From a plasmid, in assembly GCF_056746865.1 (NCBI RefSeq), contig NZ_JBWKMP010000003.1: a stretch of 64,000 bases of DNA; one strand, written 5' to 3'. Below are positions 12,576-56,343 of the stretch, piece by piece. The position numbers were made by a program, and so were the translations under genes. The notes beneath the pieces were generated by a model, which saw nothing but the letters and a program-made list of their open reading frames with translations, was not told the origin of the DNA and did not search any database. Within the stretch, counting starts at the first letter, position 1; every line of letters starts with the position of its first letter.

Positions 12576-12604
12576 TTGATCTTTCTAATGTTCAGGCTTA
12601 TATT
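12576..12604 (+). promoter_or_regulatory. Sigma70-like promoter with an operator motif in the spacer, driving the immI-like module 1
   Basis: TTGATC, 17-bp spacer containing tttctaatg, then TATATT. Confidence 0.45.
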
Positions 12605-12611
12605 CATGCCG

Positions 12612-12850
12612 TCGTAGCAAATTCTGCGACCAGGTTTGACAGCCTGAATACTTACGCGGACAACCGCACATTTCCGATATTGCGGTATTTTTGTGTCCGT
12701 AAAACCACGTTACGCCCGAATTATGGTGGGGCGTGATGGGGAGGCTTCGGCCTGCTGGTTTCGTAAGTGCCAGTCTGTCAACCCTGTCACGTCCTGCCAC
12801 CTGTTTGACAGCGGGTCGCAGGTTGTTTATCAACTTACGAGGCCGTAACT
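12612..12850 (+). ncRNA. Candidate c4-like antisense RNA / structured leader upstream of the icd-like gene
   Basis: About 240 nt without an ORF between promoter and icd-like start; tttgacag (12632, 12811) complementary to ctgtcaac (12773); P1 immI uses a C4 antisense RNA at the equivalent position. Confidence 0.35.
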
Positions 12851-13075
12851 ATGGTTAATGCCAATCATTGCTCACGTCCAGAATTCATCTGGCGTTTCCA
12901 CTCCCTGCAAAAACATTGTGATCACTTCGCAATTGCCGCAACTGAAAAAGAAGCCCGTTCTCTGATCCCTGATCAGTATGGCGTTCTCACTGGTCGTTTC
13001 TCTACTTCCCCACAACCAAACACTAATCCCTGGTATCGCAATATTACCAATCCCGGCATTGCGGAGGCTCACTGA
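12851..13075 (+). CDS. Icd-like small protein (immI-like module 1)
   Basis: 74 aa; paralogous to 54810-55025 (shared EFIWRF...AATE.EAR motif); stop overlaps the start of the antirepressor-like gene. Confidence 0.55.
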   Translation: MVNANHCSRPEFIWRFHSLQKHCDHFAIAATEKEARSLIPDQYGVLTGRFSTSPQPNTNPWYRNITNPGIAEAH

Positions 13076-13782
13076 TGGATATCTGCATTCTCGAAAAACT
13101 ATCAATGACCAGCATTGAGATTGCGGAGCTGGTGGGAAGTCAACACTCTGACGTTAAACGTAGTATTGAGCGTATGGTTGCTCGAAGCATTATCCGAAAA
13201 CCGCCAATGGCTGTTTTCGAAAAAATCAATAACTTAGGATTGCGTCGTGGCGTTGAGGCTTACGTCTTCGAAGGCGAGCAAGGCAAACGAGACAGCATTA
13301 TTGTCGTTGCGCAGCTCTCTCCCGAATTCACCGCCCGGCTGGTGGACCGCTGGCGCGAACTGGAAGAACAAGTACGCCAGCCGTTGACCGAAATAGAGAT
13401 GATCGCTGCAATGGCTGCGAATGCAGTTCAGCAGCAAAAGCGGCTTCATGCTGTTGAGTCAAAGGTTAGCCAGGTCGCTGAAACCGTCGAGCAGATCAAG
13501 AAAGGCAACATACCAGAAGGCTACATTGGCTACCGCCAACTGGCGGCGAAATGCGGCCTGACTGAAGCCAAATGCCGTAACCTGGTCAACGCTTACCGGA
13601 TCCCCACAGATACGCATGAGTTTTTGACGCCAGAGGGGGTATTGTCGCGTCGTACTATTGTGGCCTTATCTCCCTTCATGAATGCCTTTACCCTGATGAT
13701 GTCGGAGGCTGAACACCGAGGAAAACGCTGGTATCACCCAAGGATGGGGCAATTCCAGGTAATCGGTTGGGGAGGCGAGTGA
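13075..13782 (+). CDS. Antirepressor-like protein (Ant/Rha-KilA-type N-terminal domain), module 1, possibly truncated
   Basis: Paralogous to 55025-55966 over the N-terminal and middle regions (identical block EGEQGKRDSIIVVAQLSPEFTARLVDRWRELE); ORF ends early compared with the paralog. Confidence 0.6.
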   Translation: MDICILEKLSMTSIEIAELVGSQHSDVKRSIERMVARSIIRKPPMAVFEKINNLGLRRGVEAYVFEGEQGKRDSIIVVAQLSPEFTARLVDRWRELEEQVRQPLTEIEMIAAMAANAVQQQKRLHAVESKVSQVAETVEQIKKGNIPEGYIGYRQLAAKCGLTEAKCRNLVNAYRIPTDTHEFLTPEGVLSRRTIVALSPFMNAFTLMMSEAEHRGKRWYHPRMGQFQVIGWGGE

Positions 13783-13979
13783 TGGACATCATGCAGGCGG
13801 TAAAAAAAATCGGGGAAGGACAGGCTGAAGTGTGCCGCCGTAAAGCATGGAGTGTTGGTGTATGGGTCTGGCCTGATAATAGCTCTACTACTGGATGGTT
13901 TTGTATTAATGGATACCAGATCCGGGAAGTCGATTTATCGACGGCGGATGCAGTCGGTAATGATTGGATCGTAACTTGA
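13767..13979 (+). CDS. Separate-frame ORF matching the C-terminal DUF2829-like part of the antirepressor paralog (frameshifted ant or ant2-like)
   Basis: CRRKAWSVGVWVWPDN...ADAVGNDWIVT aligns with the C-terminus of 55025-55966; overlaps the 13075-13782 ORF by 16 nt in another frame. Confidence 0.4.
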   Translation: MGRRVMDIMQAVKKIGEGQAEVCRRKAWSVGVWVWPDNSSTTGWFCINGYQIREVDLSTADAVGNDWIVT

Positions 13980-13987
13980 AGTGTGAT

Positions 13988-14012
13988 GCCCCGGCTTGGC
14001 CGGGGCTTTTTT
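13988..14012. terminator. Bidirectional rho-independent terminator between ant-like (+) and the peptidase gene (-)
   Basis: gccccggc-ttg-gccggggc followed by tttttt. Confidence 0.6.
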
Positions 14013-14496
14013 ATGCCTCATTAGTTGAGGTTGCTGCGTCTCCGACTGGTAACAGAGCTGTATTGCGTGGTTCGCCAGCAGGCCAGCGATAGCCAGACAC
14101 TCTTGATGTTGGGAATGCGCGAATATTAACAGCATCCCCCTGGTTCCCACCCAAGACAAGCAGATCGCCATTGGCGCGGTGTCCGACAACAAAGCCTACA
14201 TGCCCACCGCCTGCGCGAGTAAATACAACGATACATCCGTATGCCGGTGTATCTAATTTCTCGCCCCAATCCAGATAGGATTTTGCCGACTCAAATCTTG
14301 TTGAGCGGATACCTACACGTTCCAGCATTGCACCAACAAATGCAGCGCACCACGGCGTTTCGTCGTCTTTAATTCCGCTGCGCTTAATATCCCGCCAGAA
14401 CTGAACGATCTCAGGATTGTGTTTCGCTCCTTTTATTTCGGTGACTCCAATATTTTTACGGGCCTCAATAAGCCAGCGAGGTTCAATGTTTGCCAT
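14011..14496 (-). CDS. NlpC/P60-CHAP-like protein (TIGR02594-type), putative cell-wall peptidase
   Basis: 161 aa; conserved Cys in PWCAAFV and His in GGGHVGFVV, consistent with a papain-like Cys-His peptidase. Confidence 0.55.
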   Translation of the reverse strand: MANIEPRWLIEARKNIGVTEIKGAKHNPEIVQFWRDIKRSGIKDDETPWCAAFVGAMLERVGIRSTRFESAKSYLDWGEKLDTPAYGCIVVFTRAGGGHVGFVVGHRANGDLLVLGGNQGDAVNIRAFPTSRVSGYRWPAGEPRNTALLPVGDAATSTNEA

Positions 14497-27424: not shown

Positions 27425-28000
27425 ATGTTAACGGCGAACGATAACGCGTATTTAGAAGATGATCTCGTTTTGAGTGACTTTATAGGGCGACGAGAATGCT
27501 GGACGCAAAAGCGCGAGGAGCTTTATGCAGCGTTAGTTCGTAAAGGCGTCAACATCGAAACCGCACAGAACGGTGATATGACAGTGGTAAGTGTTGGACT
27601 GCACGGCGTAAGTGTGTCAGCAATCAATCATGAGCCGTACATTGCGTTATCCGAGTCGATGGTAAGGTTAGTTAAGTTCCTGAAGTACACAGAAGCGAAT
27701 AACGTGCTCATCGCCAAAAAGAACATCCCGTTCTCATCGGCCTTTTACTGGATGATGAAGGGGCTTGATGCCCGGCGAACATCATGGCCTAAAGGGAGCT
27801 ATATATCGATGCTCCGTGGCAGTGTTGGTAGCAAAGAAAAGCTCGTCGAATTCCTGCCGGAAGAGGCATTCGATATTGTTGAAGGTTGTGATGTGATGGT
27901 TATGCCTCGCCTGGTAATGATGAATGGGGATTTACAGGCGCAGACAGACTGGTTTGCAACTGGAGTTGATATTATCGCTACTGACTGGGAGGTTTTTTGA
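27425..28000 (+). CDS. Hypothetical protein with a C-terminal DUF2829 (Tad2-like) domain
   Basis: C-terminal half carries FYWMMKGLDARRTSWPKGSYISML ... DIIATDWEVF, matching the DUF2829 pattern (G..v.R..W.g ... DllA.DW.iv). Confidence 0.55.
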   Translation: MLTANDNAYLEDDLVLSDFIGRRECWTQKREELYAALVRKGVNIETAQNGDMTVVSVGLHGVSVSAINHEPYIALSESMVRLVKFLKYTEANNVLIAKKNIPFSSAFYWMMKGLDARRTSWPKGSYISMLRGSVGSKEKLVEFLPEEAFDIVEGCDVMVMPRLVMMNGDLQAQTDWFATGVDIIATDWEVF

Positions 28001-35135: not shown

Positions 35136-35626
35136 TTAACGTGAAAGTGAAACGCCTTCATCCGGCGGCAAAACTCCCCGTTTACGCCACCGCCGGATCG
35201 GCGGCGATGGATTTTGTTGCTGTTGAAATAACGCCGGGTATCGATAGCAACGGCGCTATTTCCTCAAGCTGGTGGGTGCATACCGGCCTCGCTATGGCGA
35301 TCCCTCCTGGCTGGTGTCTGAAACTTTATCCTCGTTCCGGATTGGGCTGCAAAAAGCATACGCGCCTGGCTAACTGCGTAGGAATTATCGACTCCGATTA
35401 TCGCGGTGAAATCAAAGCAAAACTGATTACAGATCCCGGTGGTGAAGGCGTTTGCCTCAAGCCAGGAATGGCGGTCATGCAAGGCATTTTTGAGCGTGTT
35501 GAACCGGTATCGCTGGTAGAAGTTGATGAACTCGATGAAACAGAGCGAGGTGCTGGTGGCTTTGGTAGCACATCGGAAGACCGCATTGAAATCAAGCGTA
35601 CACCGCTTCAGTACGCAAAGTTTTAA
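35132..35626 (+). CDS. dut: dUTPase (trimeric dUTP pyrophosphatase)
   Basis: All hallmark motifs: AAMDF, PRSGLG, GIIDSDYRGEI, RGAGGFGSTS. Confidence 0.85.
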   Translation: MINVKVKRLHPAAKLPVYATAGSAAMDFVAVEITPGIDSNGAISSSWWVHTGLAMAIPPGWCLKLYPRSGLGCKKHTRLANCVGIIDSDYRGEIKAKLITDPGGEGVCLKPGMAVMQGIFERVEPVSLVEVDELDETERGAGGFGSTSEDRIEIKRTPLQYAKF

Positions 35627-35640
35627 GTAGAGGAAAGGCT

Positions 35641-36291
35641 ATGAATAACATGCCAACGAAAGAGCTTTTTAAGTTCCTTCCCAAATACAAAGCTCACAAA
35701 AACGTTAGTGCATCGAAAATTAAAAATGTTGTTATTTTCGGAGTAACTGATGCCCCACTTTGGGGCTGCATCGAACTCGTTGAACCAAAAGGGGCAACAG
35801 TTTGTGTTGACGCAATGTTTTTACAAAAACACCGACCAAAAACTGGCGGGTATCTGATCGTTTATGAAAACGGTTATCTGTTCTATGCCCCGGAGAAACC
35901 ATTTGAGGAATGCTATGGCCTGGTTAACGACGCCTCCAAAAATGGAACCACGGTCATCATTACGGATGACAACGGCGTGATGATTAATCTTACTGGGAGC
36001 GTAACTATTTCTGCTGGTGGCATCACCACCCAGCAAGAAGAAATCGACCTTGAAGCAGCCGACTTCTCTGATGCGCTAATGTGGTTGAAGGAAGGCAAGA
36101 AAGTTGCCCGACGCGAGTGGAAAGGCGAAAAGCAATTCTGCTGGTTAGTTCTCGCTGGAAGCGTCAATTTACACGGCATTCACGTTCCTTATGGTGACCA
36201 TTTTGTATTGAAAGATGCACAAAATATGGACAGCGTTTGGTTGCCGTCTGTGGATGATTTACTGGCCTGTGACTGGTTTGTTGTGGAGTGA
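35641..36291 (+). CDS. Two-domain protein with a C-terminal DUF2829 (Tad2-like) domain
   Basis: C-terminal FSDALMWLKEGKKVARREWKGEKQFCWLVLAGS ... VWLPSVDDLLACDWFVVE fits the DUF2829 pattern; N-terminal ~140 aa unassigned. Confidence 0.6.
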   Translation: MNNMPTKELFKFLPKYKAHKNVSASKIKNVVIFGVTDAPLWGCIELVEPKGATVCVDAMFLQKHRPKTGGYLIVYENGYLFYAPEKPFEECYGLVNDASKNGTTVIITDDNGVMINLTGSVTISAGGITTQQEEIDLEAADFSDALMWLKEGKKVARREWKGEKQFCWLVLAGSVNLHGIHVPYGDHFVLKDAQNMDSVWLPSVDDLLACDWFVVE

Positions 36292-54496: not shown

Positions 54497-54602
54497 GAAA
54501 ACACACAGTTGCGCCCTGGCATTATCGTGGGGTATATTTCTACGGCACCTTAGAAAAACGGGTGCCGGGATTGGAACCCCGGATAATGTCAAAGGCGACA
54601 CA

Positions 54603-54624
54603 GACGCCGAACGCGTCTTTTTTT
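54603..54624 (+). terminator. Rho-independent terminator
   Basis: gacgc-cgaac-gcgtc followed by ttttttt. Confidence 0.6.
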
Positions 54625-54639
54625 GTGTCATGCCATCGC

Positions 54640-54809
54640 ACAGCCATACTTAGCGTTTAGCTCAGAGATCAATGGTAGTGCTGGCTGGGCTGCCGAAAGG
54701 CAGGCCGGTTCCCTTTGACGCCGGTAGTTCCAACCCAGTCAGTGCTACCGCCATTGAGATTGGAACCTCACGCGGTAGCTCCTTAACTTAGTCAAAGGAG
54801 GCTGCCAAT
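54640..54809 (+). ncRNA. Candidate c4-like antisense RNA / structured leader of the immI-like module 2
   Basis: ORF-free ~170 nt with long-range complementarity (tcaatggtagtgctg / cagtgctaccgccattga; gttccaa / ttggaac) directly upstream of the icd-like RBS. Confidence 0.35.
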
Positions 54810-55025
54810 ATGGCTACTATCCCTACCCCAACTCATTCTGAATTTATCTGGCGTTTCTATTCCTGCCAAAAACACCTTTATATCTGCGTAATGGCTGCTA
54901 CCGAAGCAGAGGCGCGCTCATACCTTCCCGAAGAACCCTGCATTTTTGCTGCTCGCTTCACTCTTGATGCGATGGAGATCCTCAATTACTGGAATCTGCC
55001 AATGAACTGCGTGGAGGTGCACTGA
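54810..55025 (+). CDS. Icd-like small protein (immI-like module 2)
   Basis: 71 aa; paralog of 12851-13075; stop overlaps the ant-like start. Confidence 0.55.
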   Translation: MATIPTPTHSEFIWRFYSCQKHLYICVMAATEAEARSYLPEEPCIFAARFTLDAMEILNYWNLPMNCVEVH

Positions 55026-55966
55026 TGAATCTGTCCATCTCTCAAAAAGCGACAATGACCAGCATTGAGATCGCGGAACTGGTAGGAAGTCGCCCAGATA
55101 GTGTGAAGAGAACTATCGAAACACTGGCTAAAAAGAGTGTGATTCAATTTCCACAATCTGTGGAAATTGAAAATAAACAATCAGTTGGCCCTCGTCGATT
55201 TTCCAAGGCTTACATCTTTGAAGGCGAACAAGGAAAACGAGACAGCATCATTGTCGTCGCGCAGCTCTCTCCGGAATTTACCGCCCGGCTGGTGGACCGC
55301 TGGCGCGAACTGGAGAATGCCCGGGTACAGTTAAAATCCAAAGCCGAAATCCTGGCCGAAATGGCGCAAATGCATCTTGAGCATGAACGCCGGATCAACG
55401 CCGTTAATGCCCAGGTAGCCGAAGTATCGGCACAAGTGTCCAGGGTCACCGAAACACTTGAGCAGATCAAGAAAGGCAATATTCCAGAAGGCTACATTGG
55501 CTATCGCCAGTTGGCGGCAAAATGCGGCCTGACTGAAGCCAAATGCCGCAACCTGGTCAACGCTTACCGGATACCCACTGATACGCATGAGTTTTTAACT
55601 CCCGACGGTTTGCTTGCGCGACGCTCCATTGTGGCCCTGGCCCCCTTCCGGAAAGCCTTTAAGCAGGTTATGTCGGAGGCAGAACCACGTAACAAACGCT
55701 GGTATCATCCCAGGATGGGGCTATTTCAGGCCATTCACCATCCTGTGCCTGAAAGTCCAAAGGCAAACCTGTCGTTGCATACCGCCAGAGAGAAGATTAA
55801 AACAGGGTATGCAACCGTATGCCGTCGAGCATCCTGGCCTGAAAGTGTCTGGGTATGGCCCGAAAGAGGCTCACGGAAAAACTGGCGCACCATTCGCGAC
55901 GGCAAGATCTGTGCGATTGATTTACAGCCAGAAGATGTAGCAGCGACCGACTGGATTGTTAGTTAA
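55025..55966 (+). CDS. Antirepressor-like protein (Ant/Rha-KilA-type N-terminal region plus C-terminal DUF2829-like domain), intact copy
   Basis: 313 aa; N-terminal and middle regions paralogous to 13075-13782; C-terminus CRRASWPESVWVWPERG ... DVAATDWIVS fits DUF2829. Confidence 0.65.
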   Translation: MNLSISQKATMTSIEIAELVGSRPDSVKRTIETLAKKSVIQFPQSVEIENKQSVGPRRFSKAYIFEGEQGKRDSIIVVAQLSPEFTARLVDRWRELENARVQLKSKAEILAEMAQMHLEHERRINAVNAQVAEVSAQVSRVTETLEQIKKGNIPEGYIGYRQLAAKCGLTEAKCRNLVNAYRIPTDTHEFLTPDGLLARRSIVALAPFRKAFKQVMSEAEPRNKRWYHPRMGLFQAIHHPVPESPKANLSLHTAREKIKTGYATVCRRASWPESVWVWPERGSRKNWRTIRDGKICAIDLQPEDVAATDWIVS

Positions 55967-55978
55967 TAGATTTGCCCC

Positions 55979-56000
55979 GGTCATGCCGGGGCTTTAACTA
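55979..56000 (+). terminator. Terminator-like hairpin after ant-like
   Basis: gccccgg-tcatg-ccggggc followed by ttt. Confidence 0.5.
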
Positions 56001-56004
56001 CTAA

Positions 56005-56343
56005 GTGACCGGACACAGCAAAATGTATGCCACGAAAAAAATTGATTTCACTTATTCTTCCGCCACAATTGAGCGGCGCTTCACCCTCATTAGAGAGTTG
56101 GAACTGTCAAAAGTCTGGTATCAAATTCTACTGGATGAAGAGTTCTCACTGATGATAATGGCTGAAAAAGAAGCAATGCCGAATGACCGGCATAAAGTCA
56201 TTGCCAGCCTTGACCTGGTGACAAACAGATACTGGGAGACAGAGGAACTGCGTGAAGCGGGAGTAATTCGTGACCTGATGGAGAGTTCCGTTCCCCGCCG
56301 CTATCGTGCGGGAAACGAAATCTCCGTGATTAAAGGGGCTTAA
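56005..56343 (+). CDS. Hypothetical protein
   Basis: 112-aa ORF; start uncertain. Confidence 0.4.
   Translation: MTGHSKMYATKKIDFTYSSATIERRFTLIRELELSKVWYQILLDEEFSLMIMAEKEAMPNDRHKVIASLDLVTNRYWETEELREAGVIRDLMESSVPRRYRAGNEISVIKGA

Follow-up and report, generated by a model that had tools for sequence, protein, structure and literature searches.

A putative minimal Tad2-like domain, fused or coupled to antirepressor-type proteins, in the two immI operons of a D6-like phage-plasmid

Introduction

The immI operon of phage P1 (c4, icd, ant1/ant2) is controlled by the C4 antisense RNA, and its product is synthesized only in cells that lack C4 beforehand or in which C4 is overwhelmed. Besides C4, the operon contains an a1b1 target element and an Icd-like open reading frame (ORF) whose stop codon overlaps the next start codon. 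P1 encodes an antirepressor at the position downstream of icd, and a second c4-icd region has already been noted in prophages resembling Escherichia phage D6, a P1-related plasmid prophage (PMC6799933). Here we analyze a plasmid-borne stretch of 64,000 nucleotides (contig NZ_JBWKMP010000003.1 of RefSeq assembly GCF_056746865.1; hereafter "the window") that carries two operons of this type. Both end in a related 65-residue segment, which forms the C-terminus of a 313-aa antirepressor-type protein in one operon and a short gene of its own in the other. We present evidence that this segment is a diverged, remote relative of the Tad2 family of phage proteins.

To our knowledge, the sponges of the Tad2 (Thoeris anti-defense 2) family described so far are proteins that lytic and temperate phages make early and as separate polypeptides. 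Members such as SPO1 gp34.65, Myroides MoTad2, and HgmTad2/AcrIIA7 (DUF2829; PF11195) are small, phage-encoded proteins. In the Tad2 topology a helix is combined with five strands in an antiparallel sheet, and the canonical protein forms obligate tetramers that are organized around helix α1 (10.1101/2023.05.01.538930). The canonical insertion between β2 and β3 carries α2 and makes the dimer interface and, in HgmTad2, the cyclic-dinucleotide pocket (10.1101/2023.05.01.538930; 10.1101/2023.11.15.567273). Tad2 relatives are sponges with very diverse ligands (10.1101/2023.05.01.538930; 10.1101/2023.11.15.567273; 10.1101/2025.08.24.671296).

Results and Discussion

Two P1-Type immI Operons in a D6-Like Element

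Both loci show approximately 91% nucleotide identity to Escherichia phage D6 (NC_050154) and match its genes in order. Locus 1 of D6 encodes an Icd-like protein, Ant (235 aa, orf18), and a hypothetical protein (65 aa, orf17); locus 2 encodes an Icd-like protein and Ant (313 aa, orf82). Given this identity and these matching genes, the window is a D6-like (P1-related) E. coli phage-plasmid. It carries two immI operons of the P1 type, paralogous to each other and each composed of the C4 antisense RNA, icd, and ant. Rfam searches placed a C4 antisense RNA (RF01695; gathering score 45) before each operon. Operon 2 opens with an isrK-like element (RF01394; gathering score 50), at the position where operon 1 has c4-a1b1. 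The two operons contain the following features:

12598..12650, + strand: c4-a1b1 target element, operon 1 (Rfam RF03163, 55.2 bits)
12719..12804, + strand: C4 antisense RNA, operon 1 (Rfam RF01695, 69.6 bits)
12851..13075, + strand: icd-like gene, 74 aa, operon 1, with a TGA/ATG overlap with ant (GGAGGCTCACTGATG) (ORF; D6 homologue annotated Icd-like)
13075..13782, + strand: antirepressor-type protein without the C-terminal domain, 235 aa (phrog_63, 1.4e-45; D6 orf18)
13782..13979, + strand: stand-alone putative mini Tad2-like gene, 65 aa, the last gene of operon 1 (phrog_7385; D6 orf17; AlphaFold2 (AF2) model; Tad2 as top fold matches)
13988..14012, + strand: intrinsic terminator of operon 1, 8 GC pairs and T6 (terminator scan)
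54545..54623, + strand: isrK-like RNA element, head of operon 2 (Rfam RF01394, 61.3 bits)
54668..54755, + strand: C4 antisense RNA, operon 2 (Rfam RF01695, 77.1 bits, full model)
54810..55025, + strand: icd-like gene, 71 aa, operon 2, whose TGA overlaps the ATG of ant (GGAGGTGCACTGATG) (ORF; D6 homologue annotated "host cell division inhibitor Icd-like")
55025..55966, + strand: fused antirepressor-type protein, 313 aa (Phage_pRha; phrog_63; AF2 model)
55769..55963, + strand: putative mini Tad2-like (DUF2829-superfamily) domain forming the C-terminus of Ant (identity to the stand-alone copy; phrog_7385; hhalign)
55974..55992, + strand: GC-rich hairpin (GCCCCGG-TCATG-CCGGGGC) followed by TTT (homologous by alignment to the operon 1 terminator)

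The operon 2 hairpin was missed by the terminator scan because its T tract is weak. At the DNA level, the similarity between the two operons is mosaic, at 78% overall. Their closest plasmids (compared over 12800–14100 and 54700–56100) also differ: plasmid NZ_AP019805 is 99.8% identical at operon 1 and 88% at operon 2, while the corresponding values for NZ_LR890273 are 97.7% and 100%. The element is therefore itself a mosaic, pointing to recombination among D6-like elements.

Several differences from P1 immI are apparent. There are two operons per genome, operon 2 starts with an isrK-like element, and an additional Tad2-like gene or domain is predicted at the 3' end. The "Ant" label here rests on position and on the match to phrog_63; the protein itself appears to be of the Rha/Roi type and is best described as a putative antirepressor. 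D6 orf18 is annotated "anti-repressor Ant, similar to HK97 Roi".

Remote Homology of the 65-Residue Domain to Tad2

The original prediction proposed, from the sequence alone, that the antirepressor-like proteins end in a DUF2829-like domain. This holds as a remote homology, seen in profile-profile (hhalign) and fold searches; it does not extend to Pfam, for which matches were sub-threshold or silent. We compared a profile of the family with a target set containing three solved Tad2 proteins from the PDB and two Pfam-significant Tad2-like domains from elsewhere in the window. The alignments ran end to end over 62–63 columns, with probabilities of 86.4–90.9% and E-values of 1.1e-6 to 4.7e-6; with the three PDB sequences alone as the target, the probability was 34% (E = 4e-4). 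In 150 column shuffles the score was 10.1 ± 2.1 (maximum 18.2) compared to 35.6 for the real alignment, a value that none of the shuffles reached, and the reversed control scored 9.2. A DUF2829-like consensus was used solely to retrieve the Tad2 chains from the PDB; all later comparisons relied on the PDB chain sequences. A bridge between the two groups is also provided by phrog_643, to which the window copy scores 3.8e-3 and Myroides Tad2 7.8e-5.

Predicted structures lead to the same family. The AF2 model of the 65-aa protein (pLDDT 78.5) starts with a helix and has five strands, the last of them preceded by a second, short helix, and thus predicts the helix followed by a five-stranded antiparallel sheet that defines the fold, in the same order as in Tad2. 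In a Foldseek search of the PDB, ranks 1–10 were all Tad2 chains (E ~0.2–0.6, probability 0.6–0.89). AFDB50 neighbors outside the family itself were mostly 62–84-aa proteins named "Thoeris anti-defense 2-like/DUF2829" (probability 0.9–1.0). The profile-profile and fold searches led to the Tad2 family only. Tad2 and the 65-residue domain have in common an N-terminal motif, G-x(2-4)-R-x(2)-W or, in closer form, G-x-x-[VA]-x-R-x-x-W, and a C-terminal one, D-x-x-A-x-D-W-x-[IV]. The domain is shorter, with 65 residues compared to 84–104 in Tad2. No single one of these statistics is strong, but all agree, and on this combination of sequence profiles and models we classify the domain as a diverged, miniaturized member of the Tad2-like superfamily by remote homology.

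The subfamily has few members. Searching a word-indexed protein set with the 65-aa sequence gave three matches, and a family-profile search of 1.84 billion representative proteins returned only six, among them two distant relatives of 96 aa (P0124) and 68 aa (P0125); with so few matches, a deep alignment is not obtainable. A tblastn search of a phage collection found the domain in D6 only. When the two distant relatives are included in an eight-sequence family alignment, one member matches PF11195 at 8.6e-5 and four of the eight do so at ≤0.1. NCBIfam gave no match for any copy, and the precomputed Pfam annotation of homologues of the fused form lists nothing in the C-terminus.

The Short Gene of Operon 1 Is a Separate Gene

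The reading frames underlying the original prediction were confirmed by ORF listing. The 313-aa ORF at 55025–55966 (+) ends in ...CRRASWPESVWVWPERG...DVAATDWIVS, and the equivalent segment of operon 1, ...CRRKAWSVGVWVWPDN...GNDWIVT, is carried by an ORF at 13767–13979 that lies in the other (-1) frame and overlaps the 235-aa ORF at 13075–13782 (+). Over their 65 residues the two segments are 40% identical in a gap-free alignment and find each other by tblastn within the window (E = 2e-14); this similarity well exceeds chance and is conserved elsewhere. That arrangement had been taken as a split first copy, i.e., a frameshift pseudogene, a programmed frameshift, or a two-product arrangement like ant1/ant2, and none of these interpretations withstood analysis.

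The small gene most likely starts at the ATG at 13782 (MDIMQAVKK..., 65 aa, ending in DWIVT) rather than at the TTG at 13767. The A of this ATG is also the last base of the TGA that ends the 235-aa ORF, and GGAGG lies four nucleotides upstream (GGAGGCGAGTGATG). The ant/small-gene junction thus reads GGAGG-CGAG-TGATG, and the two icd/ant junctions read GGAGG-CTCAC-TGATG and GGAGG-TGCAC-TGATG; all three combine a one-base stop/start overlap with a Shine-Dalgarno sequence. This combination is the standard signature of translational coupling. From these junctions we infer that the small gene is translationally coupled to ant, as icd is to ant.

The arrangement is also conserved. We read the junction in six loci, i.e., the window, D6, three plasmids from E. 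coli and Salmonella, and one E. marmotae plasmid, and in all six both the junction and the 65-aa ORF were intact. A further locus, on pSa1423-90k, was left out since it has indels in every gene and a low-quality assembly. Junction DNA was detected in 110 plasmids (~90 kb) at 84–99.8% identity; among the matches listed, the length of the junction alignment was constant in nearly all of 40 cases. This region is mostly annotated as two genes ("Rha family transcriptional regulator" and "hypothetical protein"). The 65-aa protein matches the 65-column phrog_7385 end to end (1–65/65; 7.4e-46), and the fused C-terminal domain matches the same profile at 1.8e-13. A strong terminator lies directly 3' of the small gene. 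Between the stand-alone and fused copies, the proportion of synonymous differences (pS) is 0.77, i.e., saturated, and that of non-synonymous differences (pN) is 0.41, values that fit long-term purifying selection on both.

Aligning the DNA of the two loci, which had been proposed as a means of locating the responsible indel, revealed diverged sequence with several indels (10 nt and 6 nt) at the operon junctions rather than a change of one base. Where both frames are open, the 69-nt overlap at 13713–13782 contains no slippery heptamer (X XXY YYZ). A frameshift pseudogene or sequencing error is essentially excluded by the gene's own GGAGG and ATG, the six intact loci, the 110 plasmids, and the multiple indels; the missing heptamer and the gene's own start signals speak strongly against a programmed -1 frameshift. 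The P1 ant1/ant2 arrangement consists of nested in-frame starts and differs from the one seen here, in which the small ORF lies in another frame, has its own Shine-Dalgarno sequence and ATG, and overlaps ant in the same design as the icd/ant junctions.

With its own ribosome-binding site and start, its conservation, its own PHROG family, the multiple indels, the missing heptamer, and the terminator, the "split" copy of operon 1 is a genuine separate gene and not a broken one. The fused and separate forms are the outcome of an old gene fusion or fission between neighbors in one operon.

Within the small gene is a run of eight A residues (13802–13809; codons V-K-K-I). Truncated or frameshifted variants in databases (P0002, P0003, and P0126), together with pSa1423-90k, indicate that the gene is easily corrupted by homopolymer errors.

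Architecture of the Fused Protein

The 313-aa protein matches Phage_pRha (PF09669) at residues 11–98 (E = 3.5e-5; model positions 1–91/91), in agreement with the precomputed Pfam annotation of most homologues, and matches phrog_63, "anti-repressor Ant", over residues 2–313 (3.5e-58). Its AF2 model is laid out as a Rha-type winged helix (~10–98), a long helix or coiled coil (83–150), a second winged-helix-like domain (157–234), and the mini Tad2-like domain (249–313). A Pro-rich linker before the C-terminal domain (238–255; HHPVPESPKAN) is modeled at low confidence, which is consistent with a flexible linker. The C-terminal domain has a pLDDT of 30–56 in the full-length model, which carries no interface information and is uninformative on whether this domain docks to the body of Ant.

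The fused protein is not new and is common in databases, where it is named "Rha family transcriptional regulator": over 100 protein clusters of 301–314 aa represent it on hundreds of ~90-kb contigs from E. coli and Salmonella, and we found it in 92 plasmids. In D6 (orf17, orf18, and orf82) and in D6-like plasmid prophages such as pYU39_89, the 235-aa and 65-aa pair and the 313-aa fusion are annotated in matching order. These records name orf17 a "hypothetical protein" and orf82 "anti-repressor Ant" or "Rha family transcriptional regulator", and leave the Tad2-like domain unannotated.

Shuffling of the N-terminal module is typical of the Rha/Bro-N/KilA-N/ANT phage regulators. The present proteins behave alike. 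In a 332-aa variant from E. coli plasmid p702_18_3 (NZ_CP074704; locus L012, 909–1907), whose gene also lies behind C4 and icd, an ORF6N-type N-terminus replaces Rha, while residues 103–313, i.e., the coiled coil, second winged helix, linker, and Tad2-like domain, are 92% identical. Where they differ from this class of modular regulators is the predicted Tad2-like C-terminal appendage, which is not reported for the class in the literature that we found.

An 81-aa ORF (P0134) in E. coli WSHR01000028 (L013, 2501–2746) corresponds to the C-terminal 81 residues of an Ant of the fused type. This ORF adjoins a tyrosine integrase and an insertion sequence (IS) transposase and resembles a 3' remnant at a recombination boundary.

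Putative C4 Cassettes With a Lone Mini Gene

The two distant relatives provide a third context for the domain. Their genes reside on contigs of 88–110 kb that have nothing else in common with the window by tblastx. Each lies directly behind c4-a1b1 and C4, without icd and without ant: one is in the region of Raoultella plasmid CP196041 (L005, 2752–3291) and the other on Logan contig SRR32291423_190 (L003, 2746–3207), with lone genes encoding 96 or 68 aa. C4 with a mini Tad2-like gene looks like a mobile cassette. In view of the low-confidence linker, the replacement of Rha by ORF6N, and the lone gene behind C4 in two unrelated backbones, the mini Tad2-like unit is an autonomous module whose constant companion is the C4 circuit and not one particular N-terminal partner.

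Proposed Function of the Mini Tad2-Like Domain

In our joint best reading, a D6-like element with two immI operons carries a mini Tad2-like domain, fused to Ant or separately coupled to it, that acts as an autonomous ligand binder delivered early. We give this reading a probability of roughly 0.55. Under it, icd, ant, and the small gene would follow C4 as reading frames that are each coupled to the next, with the small gene read by termination-reinitiation at GGAGG-N4-TGATG, the same design as between icd and ant. By analogy with P1 immI, the domain would be made only once C4 control is lifted, i.e., upon infection of a naive cell or upon induction. Its amount would follow that of Ant, at a fixed 1:1 ratio in the fusion. 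Most likely, the domain would work on its own by binding a small ligand, as a sponge that takes up a nucleotide-derived immune signal and arrives early with Ant; its ligand specificity would differ from that of SPO1 Tad2. We favor a ligand binder because every characterized relative of this fold is a small-molecule sponge.

The residues that contact ligands in canonical Tad2 are partly retained. The main contacts to glyco-cyclic ADP-ribose (gcADPR) are W25, N26, W73, and D79 in SPO1 Tad2; the corresponding set in HgmTad2 is W21/N22 and S90/T92/D93 (10.1101/2023.05.01.538930; 10.1101/2023.11.15.567273). According to the hhalign alignment, SPO1 W25 and D79 correspond to W23 and D56, which do not vary within the family. 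The positions equivalent to HgmTad2 S90/T92 are occupied by S/A in the stand-alone form and Q/E in the fused form. C18, R19, W28, and P31, which make up a CRR...WVWP motif, are invariant residues specific to the family. Membership of the fold family is thus supported, and membership of the functional class of gcADPR sponges is not.

A number of observations weigh against the ligand-binder reading. At the level of the pocket, the equivalent of N26 is S (stand-alone) or P (fused) and that of W73 is V or I, so that two of the four main contact residues are kept and the gcADPR pocket is not conserved. The domain lacks the β2-β3 insertion of Tad2, and with α2 absent the tetramer and pocket may not form. 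The homology itself is faint in some searches: the stand-alone copy matches PF11195 below threshold (E = 0.08–0.11; model positions 1–72/73), the fused copy has no PF11195 match at E ≤ 10, and PDB sequence and hidden Markov model searches with the 65-aa protein and the family profiles A2 and A3 recovered no Tad2. Within the stand-alone clade, pN/pS is 0.5–0.9, based on ~12 substitutions (~4 synonymous and 8 non-synonymous) that are too few to inform. Two canonical Tad2-like proteins are already present in the window, and the mini copies may therefore act otherwise. Finally, fusion plus adjacency (Rosetta-stone logic) also fits a physical partnership with Ant.

This last point leads to the main rival, which we rate as possible but considerably less probable: the domain would be a ligand-free protein-protein module of the antirepressor, serving in oligomerization or target binding. 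In operon 1 it would dock on Ant, and in operon 2 it would be linked to it covalently. Fusion in one operon and adjacency with coupling in the other is the classic signature of interacting partners, and half of the ligand-contact residues are lost. The obligate tetramer of Tad2 around helix α1 would make its fold a ready-made oligomerizer (10.1101/2023.05.01.538930), and DUF2829 domains recur as C-terminal appendages both in window proteins and in PHROGs 872, 1048, and 30130. A dedicated partner of Ant is, however, harder to reconcile with a gene that stands alone behind C4 in unrelated backbones without ant. The linker is predicted to be flexible, and the long coiled coil in the body of Ant is already available for self-association.

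A doubtful alternative, in line with the original prediction, is that the domain senses a ligand and gates the antirepressor, such that Ant would be activated, and the prophage induced, by a second messenger of host immunity. This would suit a Tad2-family fold attached to a regulator of the lysis-lysogeny switch, as well as the invariance of W23 and D56, the counterparts of ligand-contacting W25 and D79. Against it, operon 1 encodes the domain as a polypeptide of its own, elsewhere its gene is the only one under C4 control, its linker in the fusion is of low confidence and consistent with flexibility, and C4 already controls whether the protein is made at all. As the separate gene and the lone gene behind C4 favor an autonomous module over an allosteric sensor of Ant, we consider the autonomous ligand binder the likelier of the two.

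Less probable still is that the small protein is a harmful or anti-immunity effector silenced by C4, e.g., a small antirepressor, or a toxic peptide paired with an antisense RNA in the manner of type I toxin-antitoxin systems. The occurrence of C4 and c4-a1b1 followed by the small gene alone in two unrelated plasmid backbones would be expected of such an effector, and a 66-aa Pediococcus protein among the AFDB50 neighbors (A0AAU7NJ27) is labeled "MW1434 family type I TA system toxin", a label that is an annotation and not a test. MW1434 is a predicted type I toxin of an S. aureus prophage (PMC6266405). However, NCBIfam assigned no copy to any family, the 65-aa protein does not have the hydrophobic character of a membrane peptide, and C4 control is explained equally well by anti-defense cargo that is expressed early. 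The last alternative, that an originally fused ant gene in operon 1 has become a pseudogene by frameshift, is misread through a sequencing error, or undergoes programmed -1 frameshifting, is essentially excluded: although the small ORF overlaps the 235-aa ORF in a -1 frame that is open for 69 nt upstream, and its A8 run does yield truncated database variants, the arrangement is kept in D6 and four plasmids that were sequenced independently and in junction DNA diverging by up to ~16%, along with its own start signals, dedicated PHROG family, lack of a slippery heptamer, and multiple indels.

The pairing of a DUF2829-like protein with an antisense RNA implied by the MW1434 label would parallel that of C4 with the mini Tad2-like gene; as stated, NCBIfam had no match.

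Novelty and Implications

Neither the proteins, which databases already contain, nor the type of operon is new. We found no literature that combines Tad2 with an antirepressor. Within the annotations and literature found, which did not cover the D6 genome paper, a minimal Tad2-like domain, its fusion to an Ant-type protein, and a cassette of C4 with a mini Tad2-like gene are undescribed. What emerges is a stripped-down putative relative of Tad2, invisible to Pfam, inside an antisense-RNA-controlled immunity operon of phage-plasmids that are widespread in E. coli and Salmonella. It occurs in three contexts, i.e., fused to an antirepressor-type protein, coupled to it, and alone behind C4.

If the domain does bind an immune signal as proposed, it would represent anti-defense cargo whose timing is set by an immunity circuit, and the Tad2 family would then reach down to a minimal form of 65 residues. 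If it binds no signal, the Tad2 fold would have been reused as a protein module in phage regulators. We regard as improbable the more far-reaching proposal that a nucleotide-signal module wired into C4/immI couples the lysis-lysogeny switch to abortive-infection messengers (gcADPR, cyclic nucleotides), by silencing or sensing the alarm, and travels as a mobile cassette in unrelated phage-plasmid families. The practical gain lies in correcting a likely misreading as a pseudogene and in providing a domain name for a "hypothetical protein" and an unannotated C-terminus in about a hundred sequenced plasmids.

Further Tad2-Type Domains in the Window

The window contains five DUF2829-type domains, three of them mini (one only probable) and two canonical. 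Apart from the two operon copies, these are as follows:

22867..23067, + strand: probable third mini copy, 66 aa, phrog_7206 (tblastn with the fused C-terminal domain, E = 5e-5, 31% over 65 aa)
27425..28000, + strand: 191-aa protein with a canonical C-terminal Tad2-like domain at residues 103–190 (Pfam PF11195, 2.6e-9)
35641..36291, + strand: 216-aa protein with a canonical C-terminal Tad2-like domain at residues 141–215 (Pfam PF11195, 6.1e-18)

The third mini copy, when compared alone with canonical Tad2, gave no significant match. Just upstream of it, at 22406–22852, is a gene for a 148-aa protein resembling VRR-NUC/Holliday junction resolvases, which matches phrog_5702 in its C-terminal half (1.2e-35). 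The 216-aa protein shares 40% identity with Myroides Tad2, and its D6 homologue is annotated as "DUF2829 domain-containing protein". Canonical Tad2 also matches the C-terminal ends of the longer PHROG profiles 872, 1048, and 30130; together with the C-terminal Tad2-like domains of the window proteins, these matches indicate that C-terminal fusion is recurrent.

Nucleotide matches of ~76–78% to positions 35620–36151, which cover the N-terminal part of the 216-aa protein, were found in the P1-like phages SJ46, RCS47, and vB_EcoM-Ro157c2YLVW; the RCS47 match is annotated near isaA/IS1. The canonical copy is therefore common to the wider P1 group. Three tRNA genes (26040–26111, 26117–26189, and 26897–26969; Rfam, 66–75 bits) lie in the region between DUF2829-type genes.

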